From positions 32,001 to 96,000 of the IMG/VR virus record IMGVR_UViG_3300035698_026135: a stretch of DNA of 64,000 nt; one strand, given 5' to 3'. The notes below the pieces were generated by a model. The model was not told where the DNA came from, searched no databases, and was given only the letters and a program-made list of their open reading frames with translations. Made by a program: the position numbers and the translations under genes. Shown one piece after another: positions 2,917 to 36,104 of this stretch. Position 1 is the first letter of the stretch. Every line of letters begins with the position of its first letter. Source of the DNA: a virus.

Positions 2917-4448
2917 TGAGTATTTTTGATGTCGCTGGAGCACTGAGCAAAAAGAGGGAATCTAAGACCCCAAAAATTAATACCTTTTCTGTCCAAAGGA
3001 ACCTTACGTTCAGGGGATATAAATGCACTTTGAATTGGGAGTCTGACGACAGGAGAATTGTAGGATTTAGAGTTTATAGATCTCGCTCGCAAAAAGTGAT
3101 GCTCAACAGAAGTTATAAAATATCTCAGCTTGCACTAGAAAGGCTATCGACAGTCAAGGCATTTGCCTTGCCGAATTCGACTCTGTTTGACAAGCAGATA
3201 TTTAGCCAAAACTCAAAACTAAAGTTCGAAAACTCTAAATCTACACGATATACAAAGCCAGATGAAGATAATAATGCCAGAGCACACGAATATGAAGAAG
3301 TTGGATTCGTGAAGAGGTCTTCGGACGGAGTTTATACATTCGAAGACAAAAGAGTGAAGTTTGGAGAGACCTACTGCTATGTGATATCGGCCATCGGCCT
3401 ACAAGGCTTTGGTTCGGAGAAGTCTAGTCCAGTTACCGTGAGAATAGAAGATCTAGATTTCCCAGACGCCCCAGCAAACGTCGTATTGACAGAAGGAGCA
3501 GGGAGCATACAGATTGAAATCTGCTCAGAGACAACCGCAAAAGATGTTGAATATTTTGATATATATAAGAGAGACGCAACAGGAAAGGAAGACTTTAAAA
3601 GCATAGGGAAAGTTAAGCTTGGAGGCACTTCCGTCTCCCTGTTTATAGATTCCGAAATTCTCCCAGGCAAGAGATATGAATATAAAATTTATTCCGTTGA
3701 CCTCTTTGGCAACTTCTCTTTGACTGCCAAACAAAACAATGCAAGCTATTTGGGAAACCTAGAAAGAAGGTTGGATATTCCAAATCCGAAATATAAAATC
3801 AGCATTGACTCAATTGGAAATGTTATTTTTTCCGGAGAGAAAAATAGTGACAAAATTATCGGCTATAGAATAGAGAGAAAGGATGCCTGGAGATTTCAAC
3901 AACGTTTTGAATCTAAAACATTGCTCCAAAAGCCGTGGCCATCCGTTGTCAAATTTGACGAAAACGGAGAGATGGAATTTGTTGACAATCGAGCACAACA
4001 AGGCCGAGCCTATCAATATAGAATATCTTCAATAAAGAAAAACGGCCGCCCGGCAACATTCTCTATTACGCCACACATCAGAATAGAGGATGGATATCAA
4101 TTCCCTCCCAGCGGCAGCGCAGGAATCCAAGAGACCGGCGAAGTGGAATTTACAAGACTTAAGGCTAACGCTGTAGAGACCAAACAAAATCCAATATATA
4201 CAAAGCTGCAATGGGAAATAAAAGGAAGTTGGGAATATTTACTTCTAGAAATAAGAGATGCAAAATTGGATCCAGACCCAAATCCCAAAATTGTCAAGAT
4301 AGACAATATAACAGAGAGAAATTTTGTTTTTATCAACAGTCTCAATAGAGATAGGCAATATATCCTAACGGCTAAGATATATGATGTTTTTGATAATCTG
4401 GTTGGAGAATCAAGCTCTCCTATGAATAGAGTGAGGATATCAATATAA
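2916..4448 (+). CDS. Fibronectin type III-like repeat virion protein
   Basis: Repeated GFRVYRS / F.D..V..G..Y.Y.I patterns (three units). Confidence 0.65.
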   Translation: MSIFDVAGALSKKRESKTPKINTFSVQRNLTFRGYKCTLNWESDDRRIVGFRVYRSRSQKVMLNRSYKISQLALERLSTVKAFALPNSTLFDKQIFSQNSKLKFENSKSTRYTKPDEDNNARAHEYEEVGFVKRSSDGVYTFEDKRVKFGETYCYVISAIGLQGFGSEKSSPVTVRIEDLDFPDAPANVVLTEGAGSIQIEICSETTAKDVEYFDIYKRDATGKEDFKSIGKVKLGGTSVSLFIDSEILPGKRYEYKIYSVDLFGNFSLTAKQNNASYLGNLERRLDIPNPKYKISIDSIGNVIFSGEKNSDKIIGYRIERKDAWRFQQRFESKTLLQKPWPSVVKFDENGEMEFVDNRAQQGRAYQYRISSIKKNGRPATFSITPHIRIEDGYQFPPSGSAGIQETGEVEFTRLKANAVETKQNPIYTKLQWEIKGSWEYLLLEIRDAKLDPDPNPKIVKIDNITERNFVFINSLNRDRQYILTAKIYDVFDNLVGESSSPMNRVRISI

Positions 4449-25317: not shown

Positions 25318-27030
25318 ATGCCAGTCATCCTCAAAGAGTATTATCAGCTCTCCCCAAATAAAGAGACCCTAACAGAAATGAGACAGTCTCTAAGCGAGGG
25401 CAAACCCTTCATCGTAAAGGGTCTCATTCAACGCGCCGATGCACAGAATCAAAATGGAAGAATTTATCCATTCGAAATTCTCAAAAAGGTCTTGGATGGC
25501 TACGACAAAGATTATGTATCGAAAGGTATTGCATTGGGTGAACTCGACCATTGTCTAGCTGGAGATACGGAAGTGTTGACGGAAGATGGCTGGAAAATGC
25601 TTCCAGATGTAGAGGTCGGAGAGAATGTATATTCCTACAAAGAGGGAGAAATCAAACTTGTGCCGGTAACGAAGACTCACAAATTTGCCTATAATGGAAA
25701 AATGATTCGCCTAACCAACGGAAAAAAGATGGATCTACTAATGACCCCTAATCACAGAATGATTTTGTGGGATAGAGATAATAAAGATTACTATATGACA
25801 GCCGAAGATGCAAGAAAGTCATGGAAGACAAAAAGCCCTTCCCTCTCTCATTCTAGCATTAAGTCGTCCGGCGAGTGGAATGACGGAAATAGCGAATCAT
25901 ATTTTGAGATTCCCGATACGGATTATAGAGTTTCGATGAAGGCGTGGGCCGGTTTGATGGGCATATTTTTATCAGATGGACACGTAGAGGGAAGTCGTTC
26001 GGGAAACGTTAGAAACAATAGGGTTACTATTCACCAGAAAAAGGCCGAAAATATATCAAAAATAGAAGAATTGTTGTCGTCGACCGAACTTCCCTGGACT
26101 AAGTTTATTCACGAAAACGGAAAGCATGAGTGGAGCCTTCACAACAAAGGGGTTCATGCTTACTTTTCTCAGTTTGGCAATTCGGAAACCAAGTTTATTC
26201 CAAGGGATCTACTCTTACAAAATAAAGATGTTTTGTCGACCTTGTCAGAATGGCTCCTTGTTGGCGATGGACGAAACAGAATTTCAAAAACCTCGAACTC
26301 CACAAGAGCTATTAAAGAGTATTCGACTGTGTCAACAAGATTGGCTGACGATGTTAGCGAATTGTTTTTCAAATTGGGATATAGGCCCTTCATCAAGACG
26401 GAGATAGCCAAAGAAGATTTGTTGATTGAAGGGAGGGTTGTCAAAAAAGAAAATTGCAAACCTCTCTATACTGTTGCTGGCAACACGACTAGCACATCGC
26501 TGGATGCTCGATTTATAAACTTCGAAGAAATAGAATATGATGATTATGTTTATTGTATTTCGGATGAAAATAAGAACTTTTTAACACGTAGTCCCAATGG
26601 ATATGTTTGCTGGACAGGCAATACCGAAGAGCCCGTTATAGCACTAAAGAATGTCTCCCATAGAATCCTTGAGGTTTGGTGGGAAGGTAAAGATGTGCAT
26701 GGAAAGGTTCAAATTCTGAACACCCCAGCAGGAAAGATCGCCCAAGAGATGACACTAGCAGGAATACCTCTCGGTATTTCATCGAGAGCCGTTGGATCCG
26801 TATCCAAAAACGAGTCTTCTGGTGCCGATATTGTAGAGGATGACCTTCAAATGATTTGTTTCGATCTTGTCGGCACACCATCTACCCACGGCGCCTTCCT
26901 TCACGAGAATCAAAAAGTGCTTAATTCAAAAGCAAAAGAGATTACGGATTTTGATCCAACAAAAGTTTTGCCCGCCAGCGTAAGAGTAAAGCAAACTCTC
27001 GAAGACATCCTGGGCAAAGAAGTAAAATAA
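25318..27030 (+). CDS. Prohead core protease (T4 gp21-like) with intein
   Basis: NQNGRIYP, GELDH, NVSH, LNTPAG, GISSRAVGS, DLVGTPS. Confidence 0.93.
   Translation: MPVILKEYYQLSPNKETLTEMRQSLSEGKPFIVKGLIQRADAQNQNGRIYPFEILKKVLDGYDKDYVSKGIALGELDHCLAGDTEVLTEDGWKMLPDVEVGENVYSYKEGEIKLVPVTKTHKFAYNGKMIRLTNGKKMDLLMTPNHRMILWDRDNKDYYMTAEDARKSWKTKSPSLSHSSIKSSGEWNDGNSESYFEIPDTDYRVSMKAWAGLMGIFLSDGHVEGSRSGNVRNNRVTIHQKKAENISKIEELLSSTELPWTKFIHENGKHEWSLHNKGVHAYFSQFGNSETKFIPRDLLLQNKDVLSTLSEWLLVGDGRNRISKTSNSTRAIKEYSTVSTRLADDVSELFFKLGYRPFIKTEIAKEDLLIEGRVVKKENCKPLYTVAGNTTSTSLDARFINFEEIEYDDYVYCISDENKNFLTRSPNGYVCWTGNTEEPVIALKNVSHRILEVWWEGKDVHGKVQILNTPAGKIAQEMTLAGIPLGISSRAVGSVSKNESSGADIVEDDLQMICFDLVGTPSTHGAFLHENQKVLNSKAKEITDFDPTKVLPASVRVKQTLEDILGKEVK
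25552..26622 (+). mobile_element. Intein (357 aa) with LAGLIDADG endonuclease in the prohead protease
   Basis: GELDH|CLAGDTEVLTEDGW ... TPNH ... GIFLSDGH ... LLVGDG ... VYC ... WTGN|T. Confidence 0.9.
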
Positions 27031-27062: not shown

Positions 27063-27413
27063 ATGAATATAAAGAAACTATCTTTGTTAATTGAGCGTAT
27101 GGTAGCGAAGCAACTCCAGAAACACCTTAAGCCCATGATCAACGAGGTTCTTGCAGAAAAATACCTCTCTGTGCTTACAGAGCAGAAGGCTCCCGGCCTA
27201 CAGGATTCTTTTCCAGCATACACACAAGAAACCAGGCCCACAACCGCACCTCCCGTAGAAGACGGCAGAAAACAACTACAGGAAAGAAGGGAAGCTTTGA
27301 TAGCGAAGCTTACCGATGGAGACCCAGGAATGGCTATGCTTTATGAGGGTACAAGCGCACTCGACGAAGTTGTCGATGATGATGGCGTTGATATCTCTCG
27401 GTTTGGATTTTAA
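27063..27413 (+). CDS. Hypothetical head-module protein
   Basis: AAGGAAG RBS; INE, LTE, LYE sites. Confidence 0.6.
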   Translation: MNIKKLSLLIERMVAKQLQKHLKPMINEVLAEKYLSVLTEQKAPGLQDSFPAYTQETRPTTAPPVEDGRKQLQERREALIAKLTDGDPGMAMLYEGTSALDEVVDDDGVDISRFGF

Positions 27414-27415
27414 TT

Positions 27416-27748
27416 ATGGATAAATTTAATATATTTGGATTTCTTTTTGAGGGTGGAATGTTGAGCGAAGAGGGAGAAGAGGAAGAGCAACCCGAAGCTG
27501 AACCCGAAGCTCCACAACAGCAACAGCAAGCTGAGCCGACACCAGAGAAAAATGCTGAAGTCGTTAGTCCCACGACAAGTCCTTTCGATCAATTTACTGG
27601 AGAAACAATTCAGAATATTGAATTTCAACCACATGAAAATGGTGGAAGTTTTACAATTAAAGTCGCCAACTCGAATTTGCCAATCATTATTAGTTGGGCT
27701 GGCGATCGAGTCACCATGAAGCACAAGGATATTGTCTCACTAACGTAG
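27416..27748 (+). CDS. Hypothetical acidic head-module protein
   Basis: LFE/LSE N-terminus, E/Q/P-rich linker, small C-terminal domain. Confidence 0.6.
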   Translation: MDKFNIFGFLFEGGMLSEEGEEEEQPEAEPEAPQQQQQAEPTPEKNAEVVSPTTSPFDQFTGETIQNIEFQPHENGGSFTIKVANSNLPIIISWAGDRVTMKHKDIVSLT

Positions 27749-27767
27749 TCAATATATTTTTGTTTTA

Positions 27768-27775
27768 CTATTTAA
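27768..27775 (+). promoter_or_regulatory. Putative late promoter CTATTTAA
   Basis: Recurrent motif; begins 12 nt before GTG 27780. Confidence 0.6.
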
Positions 27776-27779
27776 ACAT

Positions 27780-28865
27780 GTGAAACTGAAGCTTACAGAC
27801 ATTCTGAAGGAATTGGTTGGAGGTCCCAGCCTTCGTCCTCAAGGCCCTTCAGGCGCAAACCAACATCTATTCCCACACCATGGCCTATACGGCAAATTGG
27901 GCGGAGGGAAGCCTAAAGCTTCCAATAAAGCCCCATATAACGATAAGGATTCAGATTTAGAGAACGGCGATAAAATGGCCGACGAAGCACAACCAAAAAT
28001 AGAAGAGCTTCCTTTGGAGAATCTATTTAAATTTACCACATCGGCCAACGATAATACATCGTTTCCTCGTCCTCCAACTATGGGAGCGGGATCAATGGCC
28101 GCATATGGAAAAGACACTAATGCGATCGACTCCTTCGATACGAGCGATGAAGGAAATGAGGAGCGATTCAAGACACTTAAGGGCCGCGAAGACCAAAGAG
28201 CTAAGATTACAGAGCTTGCAGGGGGGAGAGAGAGACACCCTCGCGATGACAATGATTACTCCACCAAGCAAGGCTGGGCCAACGGAATTCCTGGCCGAGA
28301 CAAAAAAGACATCGAAGCTGGTGATTTAAAAGTAGATGAAATGATGAAAGATAGAGCACCCGATGCTGACGCTGGAAAGATCTATAAAAGGATTGTAGGA
28401 GAATCTCATGCTGGCCCACTCAAGGAAGGGGGCGCCGATTCGTCCTTTTCGAGAATGAATTTACAAAAAACGATGAAATCGCCCCAAAGTGATTTAAATT
28501 TTTGGAATATTATTGATAGAGAAAATATATATCTATTAACGAACCCTAACAAAAAGGAAAAGAATGACAAAAGGAAAAGAAGAAAAGTACAGATTGATAA
28601 GAGATTCCACAAAGCGGCTGAGCTAACTCACGTCCCCGTTGTGGCTAAGCACCTAGAAGTGAAAGCAGAAGAGGTGAATGGAGACATTAGAAAACTAATA
28701 AAGAAATTTTGCAAAAAAGTGAGAAGAGAAGAAGTTCTTAAACCATTTTATGGAAAATTGATGCACTATACTCCAAAGTCTGAAATCAAAAGACAGAAAA
28801 AACTGTCTGCGATATATTCTCAGAAAAAGAAGGAAGAAAAAGAAGAAAAGGAAGAAATTTTATAA
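27780..28865 (+). CDS. rpsU: Putative head-cargo protein with a C-terminal ribosomal protein bS21-like domain (about 28641-28830)
   Basis: LEVKAEEVNGDIRKLIKKFCKKVRREEVL...HYTPKSEIKRQKK fits the bS21 pattern; position between protease and scaffold/capsid. Confidence 0.7.
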   Translation: MKLKLTDILKELVGGPSLRPQGPSGANQHLFPHHGLYGKLGGGKPKASNKAPYNDKDSDLENGDKMADEAQPKIEELPLENLFKFTTSANDNTSFPRPPTMGAGSMAAYGKDTNAIDSFDTSDEGNEERFKTLKGREDQRAKITELAGGRERHPRDDNDYSTKQGWANGIPGRDKKDIEAGDLKVDEMMKDRAPDADAGKIYKRIVGESHAGPLKEGGADSSFSRMNLQKTMKSPQSDLNFWNIIDRENIYLLTNPNKKEKNDKRKRRKVQIDKRFHKAAELTHVPVVAKHLEVKAEEVNGDIRKLIKKFCKKVRREEVLKPFYGKLMHYTPKSEIKRQKKLSAIYSQKKKEEKEEKEEIL

Positions 28866-28928
28866 TTTCTCTGCCTTTTAGGAAATTATTGCATAATTAA
28901 ATGTAAATCTAAAGGAGTTAAATAAACA

Positions 28929-29888
28929 ATGGCAAAACGCAATATTCTTCAAGAATCGATTGTTGAAGCAAAACAACTAAAAGAGGCTGCTTACGAAAAT
29001 GCCCAGAGTGTGCTCATGGAGCACTTGAAGGATAATGTAAAGCAGTTTGTTGACGACCAGATTAATGAGTCTCTTCTTACTGAAGCTGACGAGGTTTCCG
29101 ACGCAGATTCATGCGGTGACGATGAAGAAGTACAAGAAGAAGGTTACAACATGGAAGGAGAAGAGGACATGACAGACGATGAACTAGACCTAGAGGAAGT
29201 TCCCGAAGAAGAGGAAGAAGACGAAGAAGAAGAGTGTGGAGAAGACGAGGACGTGTCCGAAGGCTTCAGCGAAGAGGATCTAGAAGAAGCGATTAATGCT
29301 GCTTTGTCAGAAGTAACCCACGGCGGACTCGGAGACATGGATTGGATTGAGAACGATGGCGAGAAACACGGCACCGGGATCGAAGATTTTGATTCGAAAG
29401 AAGACGGATGGGAAAAGAAACGCGCTCCCAAAGCAACCGATGCTAAACTGTACGGTGGCGAGCAATACCACGAGAGTCTCAAAGCGAAGATTGCATCTCT
29501 TGTAAAAGAGAATGTTACGCTTAAAAAGGCTCACAAGAAACTCTCAGAGGCTCTTAGTGAAACAAATCTTTTTAACGCAAAATTGTATTACGCTACACAG
29601 CTAATGCAGAATGAGTCGCTTAACTCAGATATCAAGACCAAGATAATTAAAAAAATGGACAAGGCCACGACTCGAAACGAGGCGAAAGGCATTTATGAGT
29701 CCGTAGAATTTGCTATTGGATTAATGGGTGAATCAAAGAAGACTTCCAAGAAGTCAAAACGTTCACTTTCCGAAGCTTATGGTTCTGAAGGCAAGTCAGC
29801 TGGCACAGGTGCCGGCGTAACAAATACAGCTCTTACTGAGTCGTATATACGTCGCAGCCAAATCCTCGCTGGTATTGTCAAAGAATAA
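28929..29888 (+). CDS. Prohead scaffold (core) protein
   Basis: Acidic, coiled coil, many xxE sites, LSETNLFNAKLYY, LAGI C-terminus; directly before capsid. Confidence 0.8.
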   Translation: MAKRNILQESIVEAKQLKEAAYENAQSVLMEHLKDNVKQFVDDQINESLLTEADEVSDADSCGDDEEVQEEGYNMEGEEDMTDDELDLEEVPEEEEEDEEEECGEDEDVSEGFSEEDLEEAINAALSEVTHGGLGDMDWIENDGEKHGTGIEDFDSKEDGWEKKRAPKATDAKLYGGEQYHESLKAKIASLVKENVTLKKAHKKLSEALSETNLFNAKLYYATQLMQNESLNSDIKTKIIKKMDKATTRNEAKGIYESVEFAIGLMGESKKTSKKSKRSLSEAYGSEGKSAGTGAGVTNTALTESYIRRSQILAGIVKE

Positions 29889-29909: not shown

Positions 29910-31538
29910 ATGAATTTTAAAGAATTAACACAAGATACTCGTAACGAGCGAACTTCACAGTCCGCTATCTCACGAAAGAAAGTTGCCAAATGGCAAAAGA
30001 CAGGTCTTCTCGAAGGCTTAAAGGATGCCCGCACGAAAGCCAATATGGCTCGACTGCTTGAGAATCAGGCGGCATCGATGCTTAATGAGGCATCAGACAC
30101 ATCCGACGTAAAGGGATTTCAGGCTATTGCCTTCCCTATGGTACGTCGTGTTTTCGGCAACCTTTTGGTTGGCGAAATTGCATCGGTTCAGCCGATGGCA
30201 CTTCCATCTGGTCTAGTCTTTTGGCTCGACTTTACACATGGTAGTACCGGAAAGGCTGGTACTGGCCGAGACGACTGGTCATCCGGTGGCTCGGTATTTG
30301 GAGATCCCGTTGGACCTCTTACCGGTGGTGCTGATGGAACTGGAGGTCACTACAACCTTCATAATAGTTATACTCAATTCGAAGCTTCGGCTGCGGTTGG
30401 TCTAGCTTCGTCAGGTTCGGCAACTTGGCTTGAGGTCGAATATGATCTTGAGCTTTCGTCCGCTGTAGCTGGCGACACTCTTTGGAAGGTCACTGTTGAC
30501 CTCGACGAGAATGCTGCAATCACAAATGTGGATCAATCAAACTATAAGAGTTTTGCCATCTCGGGAGCAGTGAACGCAGGTGTCACTCGCTACTACAGAC
30601 GTCACAATTTGTTTGATACTGCCACCAATATCCTAACTGTCTTTTACACTGGTGCCGCTGCGCTCGATTCGGGCTCGGCTGTTCAAGTTGCTTATGTCAA
30701 GAAGGATGTTCTTGGAGCAGATACGAATGGTACAACCTTGAGCCCCGCGTTCGAGTATGCATTTGATAGTGCAGATGACATTCCAGAGATTGATATCAAA
30801 ATTACATCTCATCCGGTCACAGCTAACAGTCGTAAGTTGAAAGTCAAGTGGACTCCAGAAGTCGCGCAGGATCTTAACGCTTATCACACTGTTGACGCTG
30901 AAGCTGAGCTTACTCAGGTGATGGCCGATCAGGTGGCACTCGATATTGATTCCGAGGTACTTCAAGATATGGTCAACAATGCGAAAGCAGCGAAATACTA
31001 CTGGGACCGTCGTCCTGGAACGTATGTCGATAAGGCAACAGGCGTGGAGATCACTGGACCTTCCTTCACGGGTAATGTTCAGGAGTGGTATCTTACTCTC
31101 ATGGAAACAGTCCTTGACGTAAGTAACACGATCCACCGCAAGAACTTGCGCTCAGGAGCTAACTTCATGGTGACATCACCTGACGTAGCAACAATCCTTG
31201 AGTCAATGGTTCAATGGCGTCCTTCGATTGATGTTGGCGATCCAAAGCAAACTAAATACTCGATGGGTATTGAGAAAATTGGTACACTTGCAAACCGTTT
31301 CACGGTCTACAAAGCTCCTTTCTTCTTCCGTAATATGATCCTAGTTGGATTTAAGGGAGACGAGTGGCTTGAGACTGGATACGTCTATGCTCCGTACGTT
31401 CCGATGATCGTTACACCAACGATCTACGAGCCCGATAACTTCACTCCACGCAAGGCGGTCATGACCCGTTATGCGAAACAGATCATCCGTGGTGATTATT
31501 ACGGTCTCGTGGTCGTGAAAGGAATGAATATTTTCTAA
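29910..31538 (+). CDS. Major capsid protein (T4 gp23-like)
   Basis: LLENQ, PMVRRVF, VQPMALPSGLVF, RKLKVKWTPEVAQDLNAYH, YAPYVP, TRYA. Confidence 0.97.
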   Translation: MNFKELTQDTRNERTSQSAISRKKVAKWQKTGLLEGLKDARTKANMARLLENQAASMLNEASDTSDVKGFQAIAFPMVRRVFGNLLVGEIASVQPMALPSGLVFWLDFTHGSTGKAGTGRDDWSSGGSVFGDPVGPLTGGADGTGGHYNLHNSYTQFEASAAVGLASSGSATWLEVEYDLELSSAVAGDTLWKVTVDLDENAAITNVDQSNYKSFAISGAVNAGVTRYYRRHNLFDTATNILTVFYTGAAALDSGSAVQVAYVKKDVLGADTNGTTLSPAFEYAFDSADDIPEIDIKITSHPVTANSRKLKVKWTPEVAQDLNAYHTVDAEAELTQVMADQVALDIDSEVLQDMVNNAKAAKYYWDRRPGTYVDKATGVEITGPSFTGNVQEWYLTLMETVLDVSNTIHRKNLRSGANFMVTSPDVATILESMVQWRPSIDVGDPKQTKYSMGIEKIGTLANRFTVYKAPFFFRNMILVGFKGDEWLETGYVYAPYVPMIVTPTIYEPDNFTPRKAVMTRYAKQIIRGDYYGLVVVKGMNIF

Positions 31539-31929: not shown

Positions 31930-33090
31930 ATGTCAGAACTATCCTTCGTCTCCTTTAGTGGAAGCACCCGCCCAACAGCCTTCGGAACCTACGACCTAGA
32001 CGCGACCTTCCAAGCAGATGCGGATAAGGTCGTATATTACGTTCAAAGAGAGCTTGGCTCTCCCGTTCTTGATTCTGAGCTTGATCTAAGGTCTATTTGG
32101 ACCTCGTTCGAACAAGCAACGATCGAATATAGCCAAACAATCAATGCGGCCCATGCTCGAAATATCCTCCTTGATATGCTGGGCCAGGGAACAGGATCTC
32201 TCTCTGGGTCTGAGCAAGCTTTCCCGGTAAATAACTCAACCCAGTTTGCACGACGCCAGACGGTTCAATACTCGCACGAGTTTGGCTCAGGAGGCCCCTA
32301 CAAGTGGTTTACTGGGTCCGTGACCCTCGTACCAGGCCAACAGCATTACGACCTCCAGGCGTCCATCTCAGCGTCTCTAGTGGGCACGCCGGACGATGGT
32401 AAGGGTATCACAATCAGAAAGGTCCATCATTATGAACCAACCGCAGCATTTAGATTCTTTGACACGACCAGCGTCATGAATTTCATGGGTAACTCCCTGG
32501 GCTTTGAATCATATTCCCCAGAGACGATTTTCTATCTGTTGCCAATTTGGGAAGATGTTCTCAGAGGTATACAACTTGAATTAAATCAACGAGTTAGAAG
32601 GTCTAATTATTCTTTTGACCTCAAAGGAGGCCAGATAACTCTATACCCTGTTCCAAATTACCCCACGCCTCTATTTTATGAATTTAGCTTGGACCAAGAC
32701 CCAACAGACGAATCACAACTCCAAGGGCTTAAAACTAAAGGTGTTACGTCAAACATTTCAAACATCGCCTTCGGGCATTTGGGATATGATGATATAAATT
32801 CCATAGGCAAAACCTGGATTTGGAGAATGACTCTAGCTATGTGTAAAGAGATCTTGGGCCATATTTACAGCAAATATCAAAATATTCCTATCCCAGGACA
32901 GCAGATCACCCTCAATGGTGCTGATCTAATTGCGCGAGGAAGAGAAGATCAAGCAAACTTGAGACTTGAACTCAAGGAACTCTTGGAGCAAATGAGTTAT
33001 AAAAACCTCATCGCAGACAGGCAAGAGCTTGAAGATAACGTACAAAGGGAGTGGTTAAGGGTACCACTTTTAATTTATTTGAGCAAGTGA
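31930..33090 (+). CDS. Neck / head-tail adaptor (T4 gp13-like)
   Basis: RELGSPVLDSELD; WIWRMTLAMCKEILG..KY..IPIPG..TLNG. Confidence 0.8.
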   Translation: MSELSFVSFSGSTRPTAFGTYDLDATFQADADKVVYYVQRELGSPVLDSELDLRSIWTSFEQATIEYSQTINAAHARNILLDMLGQGTGSLSGSEQAFPVNNSTQFARRQTVQYSHEFGSGGPYKWFTGSVTLVPGQQHYDLQASISASLVGTPDDGKGITIRKVHHYEPTAAFRFFDTTSVMNFMGNSLGFESYSPETIFYLLPIWEDVLRGIQLELNQRVRRSNYSFDLKGGQITLYPVPNYPTPLFYEFSLDQDPTDESQLQGLKTKGVTSNISNIAFGHLGYDDINSIGKTWIWRMTLAMCKEILGHIYSKYQNIPIPGQQITLNGADLIARGREDQANLRLELKELLEQMSYKNLIADRQELEDNVQREWLRVPLLIYLSK

Positions 33091-34202: not shown

Positions 34203-36104
34203 GTGAAGTTTGATTTATCTAAAATATTTAGAAAGCTCATTACAGAAGATGCTGAATCGAAAGAATACCTGAAGGGACTCAACGCAAAACAGCTTCAAAA
34301 GGGCGCTCGACCTCCAGAGGGAGTAGACCCAAAAGAGTTCTATAATAACCTCCAACAACAAATCTCCCAAGAGGCTGAGGACGGCCCTATCTTCAACGGT
34401 AGTATACTGGGGTTTGTAGAGTCGATTCCATACCAGATGGACAAGAGACAAACTCAGTGGGTTGGAAATTTAAAAAAGCAAGGCGCTGCCCTGGACCCTG
34501 GACCGCTGGGCCAGGTCATTTCTTATACGAGAGCTAACGATATTGACATCTCTCAATTTCCCGATCTCGAAACAGCTAAACAGAGCTTTGACGATTGGGT
34601 AGCGGGGTCCGACGAAGAAGATGACGGTGACCTTGGTGGGTATGCAACAAACCATGTCGCCATGGACTTTCCTGACGGATACAAAATTGTAAATATGACA
34701 TCAGAAGATCTTGAGACCGAAGGCGAAAAGATGGGACATTGCGTCGGTGGGGAAGATTATTGCGAAGCTGTGGACACAGAGCAGTCCGAAATATACTCAC
34801 TAAGAGACAAGCAGAACCAACCGCACGTAACCCTAGAATATGATTTAAACGAAGAGCAGGTCGTTCAGATATACGGGAAGCAGGACGAAGATCCGATTCC
34901 GAAATACCATCCTTATATCTTTCAGTTTTTGATGAAGATGAACGACCCGGAGCAAGCTGCCGATTGGGCCGATGATAATTCTTTGAAAGGTCTCGTTCAA
35001 CACGAAGATCACTCTGTCCGCGCATCCATTGCCGGAAACAAAAAGATGACTCCAGAACTTCTTGATATTTTGGCCAACGACGAAAGCCATATAGTTCGAG
35101 AGATGACAGCAGAGAATAAAAACATCTCTCCTGAAGCTTTAGATAAAATACTCGACCACGAAGATGTCACCAGCATGACAAGAAAGAACGCAGCAGAGAA
35201 CCCCAGAGCCAACGCCGCCACGCTAGAAAAGTTATATAAATTAGAGGACGAAGAAATCAATTGGAGGATTGTATCAAACCCCAATGCAGATAAAGATATC
35301 GTCTTAAAGATTTATAAAGATGTTTTAGGGAGTTCGAAGTGGGATTTCAGATACGAAGAGAAGTTCGCAGAAAATGAAAATACTCCCTCTGATATCTTGA
35401 ATGATATTTCCCTGAAAACCAAAAGGCATCGAACCACCGAGAAGCTTGCTAAAAATCCAAACTCTCCACCCGAAGTGTTGGATAGGATAATGGATAAATA
35501 CCTTGCCAACGATCCAATCATCGATAGCGTTATTGTTCAGTATGTTGCATACAATAAGAACACCTCCGAAAAAACTCGCCACAAACTGATAGATACTGGA
35601 TCTTTTCTTCGTCATCTTGCGATAGTCAGAAACTTGAGTGTTGATACGATCAAAAAATTGATTGACGCCTCCCTCTCAAAACAATCTCCTCGCGACCAAA
35701 CCAAGACGTTTTGGGAAATTGCCTCAAATGAAAATGTGCCCAAAGAGTATCAACGGAAAATGGAAGATAGCGGAGAAATCAGTGTTGCAAATAAGCTTGC
35801 ACAAAATAGAAATTTAGATCCAGATCTAGCTAGAACACTTGATAAACGTTACGGAAGCGAAGCGCAGCAAATACTGGCGGCAAATCCTGCGATTCCTGAC
35901 GACTTGATCATAAAATATATTAGCCACAAAAATCCGTATGTTAGGGTTGCGGTTCTCACCCAGAGTTCAGAAAGGCTCGGCCGAGAAGCTCTTGAAAAAC
36001 TAAGTAAAGACGATTCTGGACCAGTTGCAGATAATGCCAGAATAAAGATTCAAGAACTTAGCGAATCATTTAATCCGCCTCTTCTGGGATTTTTCAATAT
36101 TTAA
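34203..36104 (+). CDS. PcfJ-like domain protein with LRV/HEAT-like repeats
   Basis: EGEKMGHCVGG..IYSLRD..PHVTLE..QIYGKQ; repeated A.NPN/NENTP helical units. Confidence 0.7.
   Translation: MKFDLSKIFRKLITEDAESKEYLKGLNAKQLQKGARPPEGVDPKEFYNNLQQQISQEAEDGPIFNGSILGFVESIPYQMDKRQTQWVGNLKKQGAALDPGPLGQVISYTRANDIDISQFPDLETAKQSFDDWVAGSDEEDDGDLGGYATNHVAMDFPDGYKIVNMTSEDLETEGEKMGHCVGGEDYCEAVDTEQSEIYSLRDKQNQPHVTLEYDLNEEQVVQIYGKQDEDPIPKYHPYIFQFLMKMNDPEQAADWADDNSLKGLVQHEDHSVRASIAGNKKMTPELLDILANDESHIVREMTAENKNISPEALDKILDHEDVTSMTRKNAAENPRANAATLEKLYKLEDEEINWRIVSNPNADKDIVLKIYKDVLGSSKWDFRYEEKFAENENTPSDILNDISLKTKRHRTTEKLAKNPNSPPEVLDRIMDKYLANDPIIDSVIVQYVAYNKNTSEKTRHKLIDTGSFLRHLAIVRNLSVDTIKKLIDASLSKQSPRDQTKTFWEIASNENVPKEYQRKMEDSGEISVANKLAQNRNLDPDLARTLDKRYGSEAQQILAANPAIPDDLIIKYISHKNPYVRVAVLTQSSERLGREALEKLSKDDSGPVADNARIKIQELSESFNPPLLGFFNI

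Follow-up and report, generated by a model that had tools for sequence, protein, structure and literature searches.

A divergent bS21-like domain in frame with a head-module protein in a T4-type phage contig, and its separate, overlapping counterparts in relatives

The DNA analysed here, a stretch of 64,000 nucleotides referred to below as the window, comprises bases 32,001–96,000 of a 113-kb IMG/VR virus record, the completeness of which was put at 52% by CheckV. Pfam and PHROG searches of the window revealed a T4-type head module around an open reading frame (ORF) of 361 codons, with sheath and tube genes further downstream in the head/tail region (Table 1). The genes for TerL, portal, major capsid protein, sheath and tube were all intact in the contig, and + strand ORFs of at least 150 aa cover 87% of it, with no indication of poor assembly or of indel-prone sequencing. 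CGG was the rarest arginine codon in the long + strand ORFs (40 of 1,525 arginine codons), where it occurs in frame. The genes are unbroken and none seems to require a shift at CGG, so that a genome-wide shift at this codon was rejected.

The prohead protease gene of this module is split by an intein with a LAGLIDADG domain, its Pfam matches being Peptidase_S77 in two stretches, Intein_splicing, LAGLIDADG_3 and Hint; splicing would be required for all head maturation. The N-terminal segment of the capsid protein (window 29910–30090) carries LLE, LLE and LNE sites, the LNE standing directly before ASDTSD and 16 residues ahead of a conserved MVRRV motif, which fits a T4-like delta-domain that would be cleaved off by the protease.

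Table 1. Features of the head module and of the fused ORF, in window coordinates.
Feature	Position	Strand	Remarks
TerL	18268		Pfam/PHROG
Portal	19919		Pfam/PHROG; followed by two ORFs without known function
Prohead protease, gp21-type (Peptidase_S77)	25318..27030	+	PF03420, E 6.5e-17; phrog_207, E 1e-36
ORFs of 116 aa and 110 aa	between protease and 361-aa ORF		
TATTTAAA motif	27769..27776	+	3 nt 5' of GTG 27780; candidate for a late promoter or an AU-rich element in initiation
Fused ORF, GTG start	27780..28865	+	361 codons plus stop
Leader of 11 residues ending LKE, T4-CTS-like	27780..27812	+	[LI]xE kept in 6/7 homologues
N-terminal part, residues 1 to ~262	27780..28565	+	Family of 263–308-aa proteins; putative prohead core/internal protein
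AAGGAA, Shine-Dalgarno-like sequence of the ancestral S21 start	28554..28559	+	Duplex energy with the anti-Shine-Dalgarno, -5.6 kcal/mol
Remnant of the ancestral S21 start	28564..28626	+	ATG 28564 to TAA 28624–28626; 20 codons, +1 frame
One-base difference	28567..28568	+	ATGAC in the window, ATGAAC in contig L001; merges two frames
Basic extension starting KRKRR, now a linker	28575..28640	+	pI 10.7; homologous to the N-terminal extension of P0007
bS21-like core, residues 288–361	28641..28862	+	Pfam match at residues 300–347 (nt 28677–28820)
Acidic scaffold-like protein, 319 aa	28929..29888	+	[LIV]xE, 19 found, 9 expected
Major capsid protein, gp23-type	29910..31538	+	PF07068, E 1.2e-63

The 361-aa ORF announced by the first-pass annotation of this DNA is present as described, and the C-terminal sequence quoted there lies in frame with it. 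Its GTG start lacks a Shine-Dalgarno sequence (duplex energy +1.5 kcal/mol) and follows a copy of TATTTAAA, a motif found 14 times where 4.5 copies were expected (sites 27769, 31918 and 36098 on the + strand and 11 others), a count reached in none of 100 shuffles. The other two + strand copies named end 4 nt before the starts at 31930 and 36110, and like GTG 27780 both of these starts are devoid of a Shine-Dalgarno sequence. This arrangement suggests that TATTTAAA serves either as an AU-rich signal for initiation or as a late promoter of mRNAs with little or no leader.

A search of a 5.8-billion-protein collection with the ORF yielded six homologues of its N-terminal part, 263–306 aa long, the nearest of which (P0001) is 65% identical, and a further homologue of 308 aa was found on the metagenome contig L001; identities ranged from 35 to 65%, and every one of these proteins stops at about query residue 270. 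No family in Pfam, PHROG or NCBIfam was matched by this part, nor was there an Atlas hit. Its description as disordered-looking fits the AlphaFold model, which consists there mostly of low-confidence isolated helices, with pLDDT values below 70 for most of residues 1–250 and of at least 90 in the S21 part.

Its first residues form a leader resembling the T4 capsid-targeting sequence (CTS), a loose motif that also occurs in about one-fifth of the ORFs of the contig. Such leaders are present in all four consecutive head-module ORFs of 116, 110, 361 and 319 aa (window 27063–29888). Leaders of 9–15 residues ending [LI]xE were seen in these four ORFs and also in a 633-aa ORF at 34203 (34203–36104). 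The protease sites proposed earlier are all there, namely LKE at residues 9–11, ITE at 143–145, VDE at 185–187, VGE at 206–208 and LKE at 214–216, although they differ in conservation: the site at 143–145 was retained in 7/7 homologues and that at 185–187 in 5/7, whereas that at 214–216 is not conserved. The N-terminal part holds six [LIV]xE sites against 2.6 expected (P=0.03), and the enrichment is stronger in the 116-aa ORF (7 against 2.2) and in the 319-aa scaffold-like ORF (Table 1). The S21 part is basic and contains none, against 2.4 expected. As had been calculated, a cut behind E216 (nt 28428) would yield a C-terminal piece of 145 aa. No [LIV]xE was found between residue 216 and the S21 core, so that the smallest predicted product is this 145-aa fragment, with no clean release of free S21. 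Judged by these features, the N-terminal part has the appearance of a protein cut by a T4-type prohead protease, and by analogy the pattern of leader and sites is that of the T4 prohead-core and internal proteins processed by gp21.

The C-terminal domain had been read as S21-like, and this reading was borne out by profile and structural comparisons, even though the score of the single sequence falls below the curated threshold. PF01165 (Ribosomal_S21) was the sole Pfam match in the 361-aa ORF and covered profile positions 6–53 of 55, scoring 17.1 bits with the whole ORF and 21.0 bits (E 2.7e-4) with the 74-aa piece against a curated cut-off of 27 bits; TIGR00030 likewise remained below its cut-off (12.6 against 28.95 bits). 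A profile built from the window domain and its two nearest relatives was searched against 1.84 billion representative proteins and retrieved 44 proteins, which together with the window domain, P0008 (encoded on an 85-kb Logan contig) and an ORF of contig L003 make up a family of 47 members, termed A3. PF01165 was matched by 37 of the 47 at E <= 0.01, with a best E of 8.8e-16. The A3 profile matched 28 distinct sequences in the PDB, all of them bS21 (best E 4.4e-11), and aligned with Acinetobacter bS21 (6v39_u) over residues 3–64. The 16 closest sequences alone, a tight clade, gave a weak S21 match in the PDB (E 0.067), and the S21 assignment therefore depends on the intermediate sequences and on the fold; the three-sequence profile A2 gave a chance-level match only in the PDB, to a mitochondrial RNA polymerase.

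The fold was assessed with an AlphaFold model of the 74-aa piece (pLDDT 89.9), which displays the short N-terminal segment and two long helices of bS21. A wide VIA-align comparison with 48,161 chains returned only two matches of Z >= 5, both of them bS21, from Borrelia (8fmw_U, Z 6.0) and E. coli (11bq_U, Z 5.1), at modest Z and high rmsd. The bS21 of F. johnsoniae (7jil_z, Z 4.0) was tied at Z ~4 with unrelated coiled coils, and several small-subunit chains of mitoribosomes, which we take to be bS21m, were among the lower rows (Z ~4). A Foldseek search of the PDB with the same model gave no match. These sequence and model comparisons support the view that the C-terminal domain is a divergent bS21 homologue.

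The proposal that the fusion is an evolved arrangement was not supported by comparison with relatives. All 44 relatives of the S21 part among the 1.84 billion representatives are 64–110 aa long, and no fused form was found when the S21 part was sought in proteins of 198–632 aa. A stand-alone bS21 is about 55–110 aa long and has its own start; here the domain forms the end of an ORF of 361 aa. Profile searches for relatives yielded nothing in viral contigs (A1, A2, A4) or in genome contigs (A1, A2), and tblastn against 50,697 phage records found none with either the whole ORF or the S21 part. On this sequence evidence, the fusion is a singleton, conserved in no relative, and not a conserved design.

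Part of what the first-pass annotation had named as refuting evidence was seen: relatives have a separate small gene that begins at the equivalent of ATG 28564, in another frame. The nearest relative of the S21 part, P0007 (96 aa, 80% identical), comes from an ENA contig of 2,146 bp, equal in size to that of P0001, and back-translation indicated that a single DNA can encode both the end of P0001 with its stop and the beginning of P0007 only where the two coding regions share 44 nt, the S21 frame being +1. On L001 the 308-aa homologue ends at 2123, and an S21-like frame opens in the +1 frame at ATG 2080, 2101 or 2110, before the contig comes to an end. In these two closest relatives the S21 gene thus begins, again in the +1 frame, with an ATG that lies 14–44 nt from the end of the gene ahead of it. 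Programmed frameshifting in the relatives was considered and rejected, as S21 is in the +1 frame and the overlap holds no slippery site for such a shift.

A similar coupling was seen at a greater distance. Contig L003, the major capsid protein of which is 45% identical to that of the window, carries a shortened S21-like ORF of 59 aa (region 3333–3832) that overlaps the stop of a 107-aa ORF by ATGA; it stands alone, downstream of the protease gene and immediately ahead of the scaffold and capsid genes. At the level of sequence, the coupling of S21 to an upstream head-module gene is therefore recurrent. Between the N-terminal family and a 173-aa ORF of L003, hhalign gave no significant match (probability 2.7%). 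A stand-alone RpsU of 75 aa is annotated between the protease and capsid genes of an isolate, Microcystis phage Mel-JY01 (PP395634.1), and the 388-aa neighbour of this RpsU showed no relation to the N-terminal part.

Comparison with L001 locates the difference, the sequence being ATGAACAAAA in L001 and ATGACAAAA at the same place in the window. The orthologues of ATG 28564 are the P0007 start codon and, on L001, ATG 2080. The first-pass annotation had named ATG 28564 as a possible start of a separate gene in a corrected frame; it lies in the +1 frame and, as written, opens just 20 codons. When one unknown base was added after ATGA, an ORF of 100 aa from ATG 28564 was obtained that is colinear with P0007, the basic extension included. 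One missing base is thus sufficient for the loss of both the S21 gene's own start and the stop of the upstream gene. The AAGGAA sequence ahead of this ATG has the same duplex energy as that of the protease gene and is near that of the 116-aa gene (-6.3 kcal/mol).

The basic extension, which AlphaFold2 models as part of a helix over residues 256–282, resembles that of P0007 at ~10 of 23 positions (counted by eye). In most stand-alone A3 relatives (P0007–P0051) a Lys/Arg-rich N-terminal extension of 10–35 residues is followed by a semi-conserved E-P/A-V-x-A motif directly before the S21 core; cellular bS21 is not known to carry such an extension. GTG 28641 is in frame, as had been noted, and with no in-frame ATG, GTG or TTG between 28473 and this codon it is the only in-frame start ahead of the S21 core, and one that would drop the extension shared with P0007.

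These observations are best accounted for, in our view, by two late genes, usually separate, that were merged by a single-base frameshift in this lineage, an explanation to which we give about an even chance. Gene 1 would encode a largely disordered head-module protein, probably a protease substrate, and gene 2 a divergent phage bS21, the two being normally separate, translationally coupled and expressed late. In the relatives, the S21 ATG in the last 14–44 nt of gene 1, in the +1 frame, would allow both proteins to be made together late, while here a base missing just after this ATG would have abolished the S21 start and the stop of gene 1 together, leaving a 361-aa fusion that would be recent and lineage-specific. 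From what is known of bS21 in the literature, the S21 module would be expected to bind the 30S platform beside the anti-Shine-Dalgarno and to replace the host bS21; if the leader works like a T4 CTS, carriage of S21 into proheads would probably be a by-product. Since the frameshift is seen in a sole contig, it may be an assembly error or a defective allele. An indel introduced by assembly or sequencing, or a defective allele of minor frequency, is possible, though we hold it to be on the unlikely side; the real phage would then have two overlapping genes and a bS21 of ~100 aa from ATG 28564. One missing base accounts for everything, the ancestral ATG and Shine-Dalgarno sequence are untouched, and the genes are separate in every relative and fused in none; yet the site (GAAC against GAC) is no long homopolymer, the other large genes are intact and long ORFs are dense across the contig. 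The window proteins, controls included, had no exact match in a 15-billion-protein collection, and hence there is no second assembly to compare.

If the DNA is correct, the fusion could also be adaptive, as the first-pass annotation had proposed: the leader would direct the protein to the prohead core, the protease would free an S21 fragment (for example after LKE216), and this would be injected and target host ribosomes as infection begins. We consider this unlikely. The LKE leader at residues 9–11 is conserved in homologues and common to the neighbouring head-module ORFs, a Peptidase_S77 protease is encoded 750 nt upstream, the S21 part is basic and free of [LIV]xE, and in T4 proteins placed C-terminal to IPIII, or to its CTS of 10 residues, are taken into the head and delivered to the host (PMC9026906). 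Nevertheless, as a sole case that a single base separates from the two-gene arrangement, the fusion offers no evidence of selection for it; moreover, the last candidate site, itself not conserved, would leave the 145-aa fragment and not a free bS21, and no known internal protein is homologous to the N-terminal part. The capsid-cargo reading thus stands in so far as the N-terminal part resembles a protease substrate, with its place in the head module, its LKE leader and its conserved sites, but not as regards the fusion as an evolved arrangement. Quite improbable, in our estimate by analogy with T4, is the complete scheme in which the fusion is real and functional, with S21 loaded via the CTS-like leader, surviving cleavage as a basic C-terminal fragment, and being injected so as to alter the host 30S before phage expression. 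A correct sequence might instead yield a separate 74-aa S21 from GTG 28641, for instance by re-initiation after the 20-codon remnant ORF, the ATG of which keeps its Shine-Dalgarno sequence and which ends (TAA 28626) 14 nt before the GTG. The product would presumably be of roughly canonical bS21 length, its start fitting approximately the canonical N-terminus, but GTG 28641 lacks a Shine-Dalgarno sequence (-1.9 kcal/mol, background level) and such a start omits the basic extension common to P0007, which makes this the most doubtful of the explanations considered.

The main result is accordingly not the fusion but the arrangement from which it differs by one base: in this lineage the S21 gene appears to overlap, and to be translationally coupled to, a conserved head-module gene, and a single base decides between one protein and two. 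This calls for caution against taking single-contig fusions as designs. Phages commonly carry bS21 next to capsid genes, which is currently explained by a boost of late translation. If bS21 is indeed naturally fused to a head protein processed by the protease, a second route would be suggested, in which the virion delivers a ribosomal protein. This would be the first such case for a ribosomal protein, and it would hint at joint action of the coupled stand-alone bS21 of related phages and the product of the head-module gene ahead of it. Should the fusion be real and its N-terminal part be targeted to the prohead, carriage of S21 into the prohead would be a reasonable expectation. Delivery with the virion is mechanistically plausible by the T4 precedent, though unsupported by conservation.

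Compared with cellular bS21 (rpsU; PF01165, TIGR00030), the window domain is of equal length and shows an equal helix pattern, but its inter-helix loop is divergent (KPFYGKLMHY against EVRRREFYEKP in 6v39_u). The T4 internal proteins IPI–III and Alt offer a second comparison. Packaging in T4 requires no more of IPIII than its first 10 residues, and passengers fused to the whole protein or to the CTS are incorporated into the head and delivered to the host (PMC9026906). The window ORF shares with this system a leader of ~10 residues ending [LI]xE in a phage with a gp21-type protease (PF03420, here split by an intein), but its N-terminal part is without sequence homology to these proteins (Pfam, PHROG, NCBIfam, tblastn and Atlas), and its several internal conserved [LIV]xE sites and low-confidence model bring it closer to a degraded core or scaffold protein.

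The nearest parallel is the bS21 of phage head modules. Phage bS21 genes adjoin prohead protease, capsid and portal genes. Chen et al. (2022; PMC9723584) found late expression and, among 900 phage genomes that encode bS21, the prohead protease as the most frequent neighbour (310 genomes). The bS21 of pelagiphage HTVC008M enters E. coli ribosomes (Mizuno et al., 2019; PMC6375957), although it is a different protein and less divergent than the window domain. Fused bS21 is unmentioned by Chen et al. (2022), and Mizuno et al. (2019) mention fusions of other proteins only. The presence of bS21 genes in the head modules of phages was thus already known, while the overlap and coupling of S21 with a conserved head-module gene, and the in-frame fusion in a single contig, are new here. 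Like these phage proteins, the window domain is a small basic homologue encoded beside protease, scaffold and capsid genes of large myoviruses. The protease and capsid genes of Mel-JY01 are on the same strand as its RpsU gene, whereas in the clades of Chen et al. (2022) the bS21 gene is on the opposite strand. The window domain differs from phage bS21 in belonging to a more divergent clade, below the Pfam cut-off, with a basic N-terminal extension, and in lying, without a start of its own, in frame with an upstream head-module protein of 285 residues.
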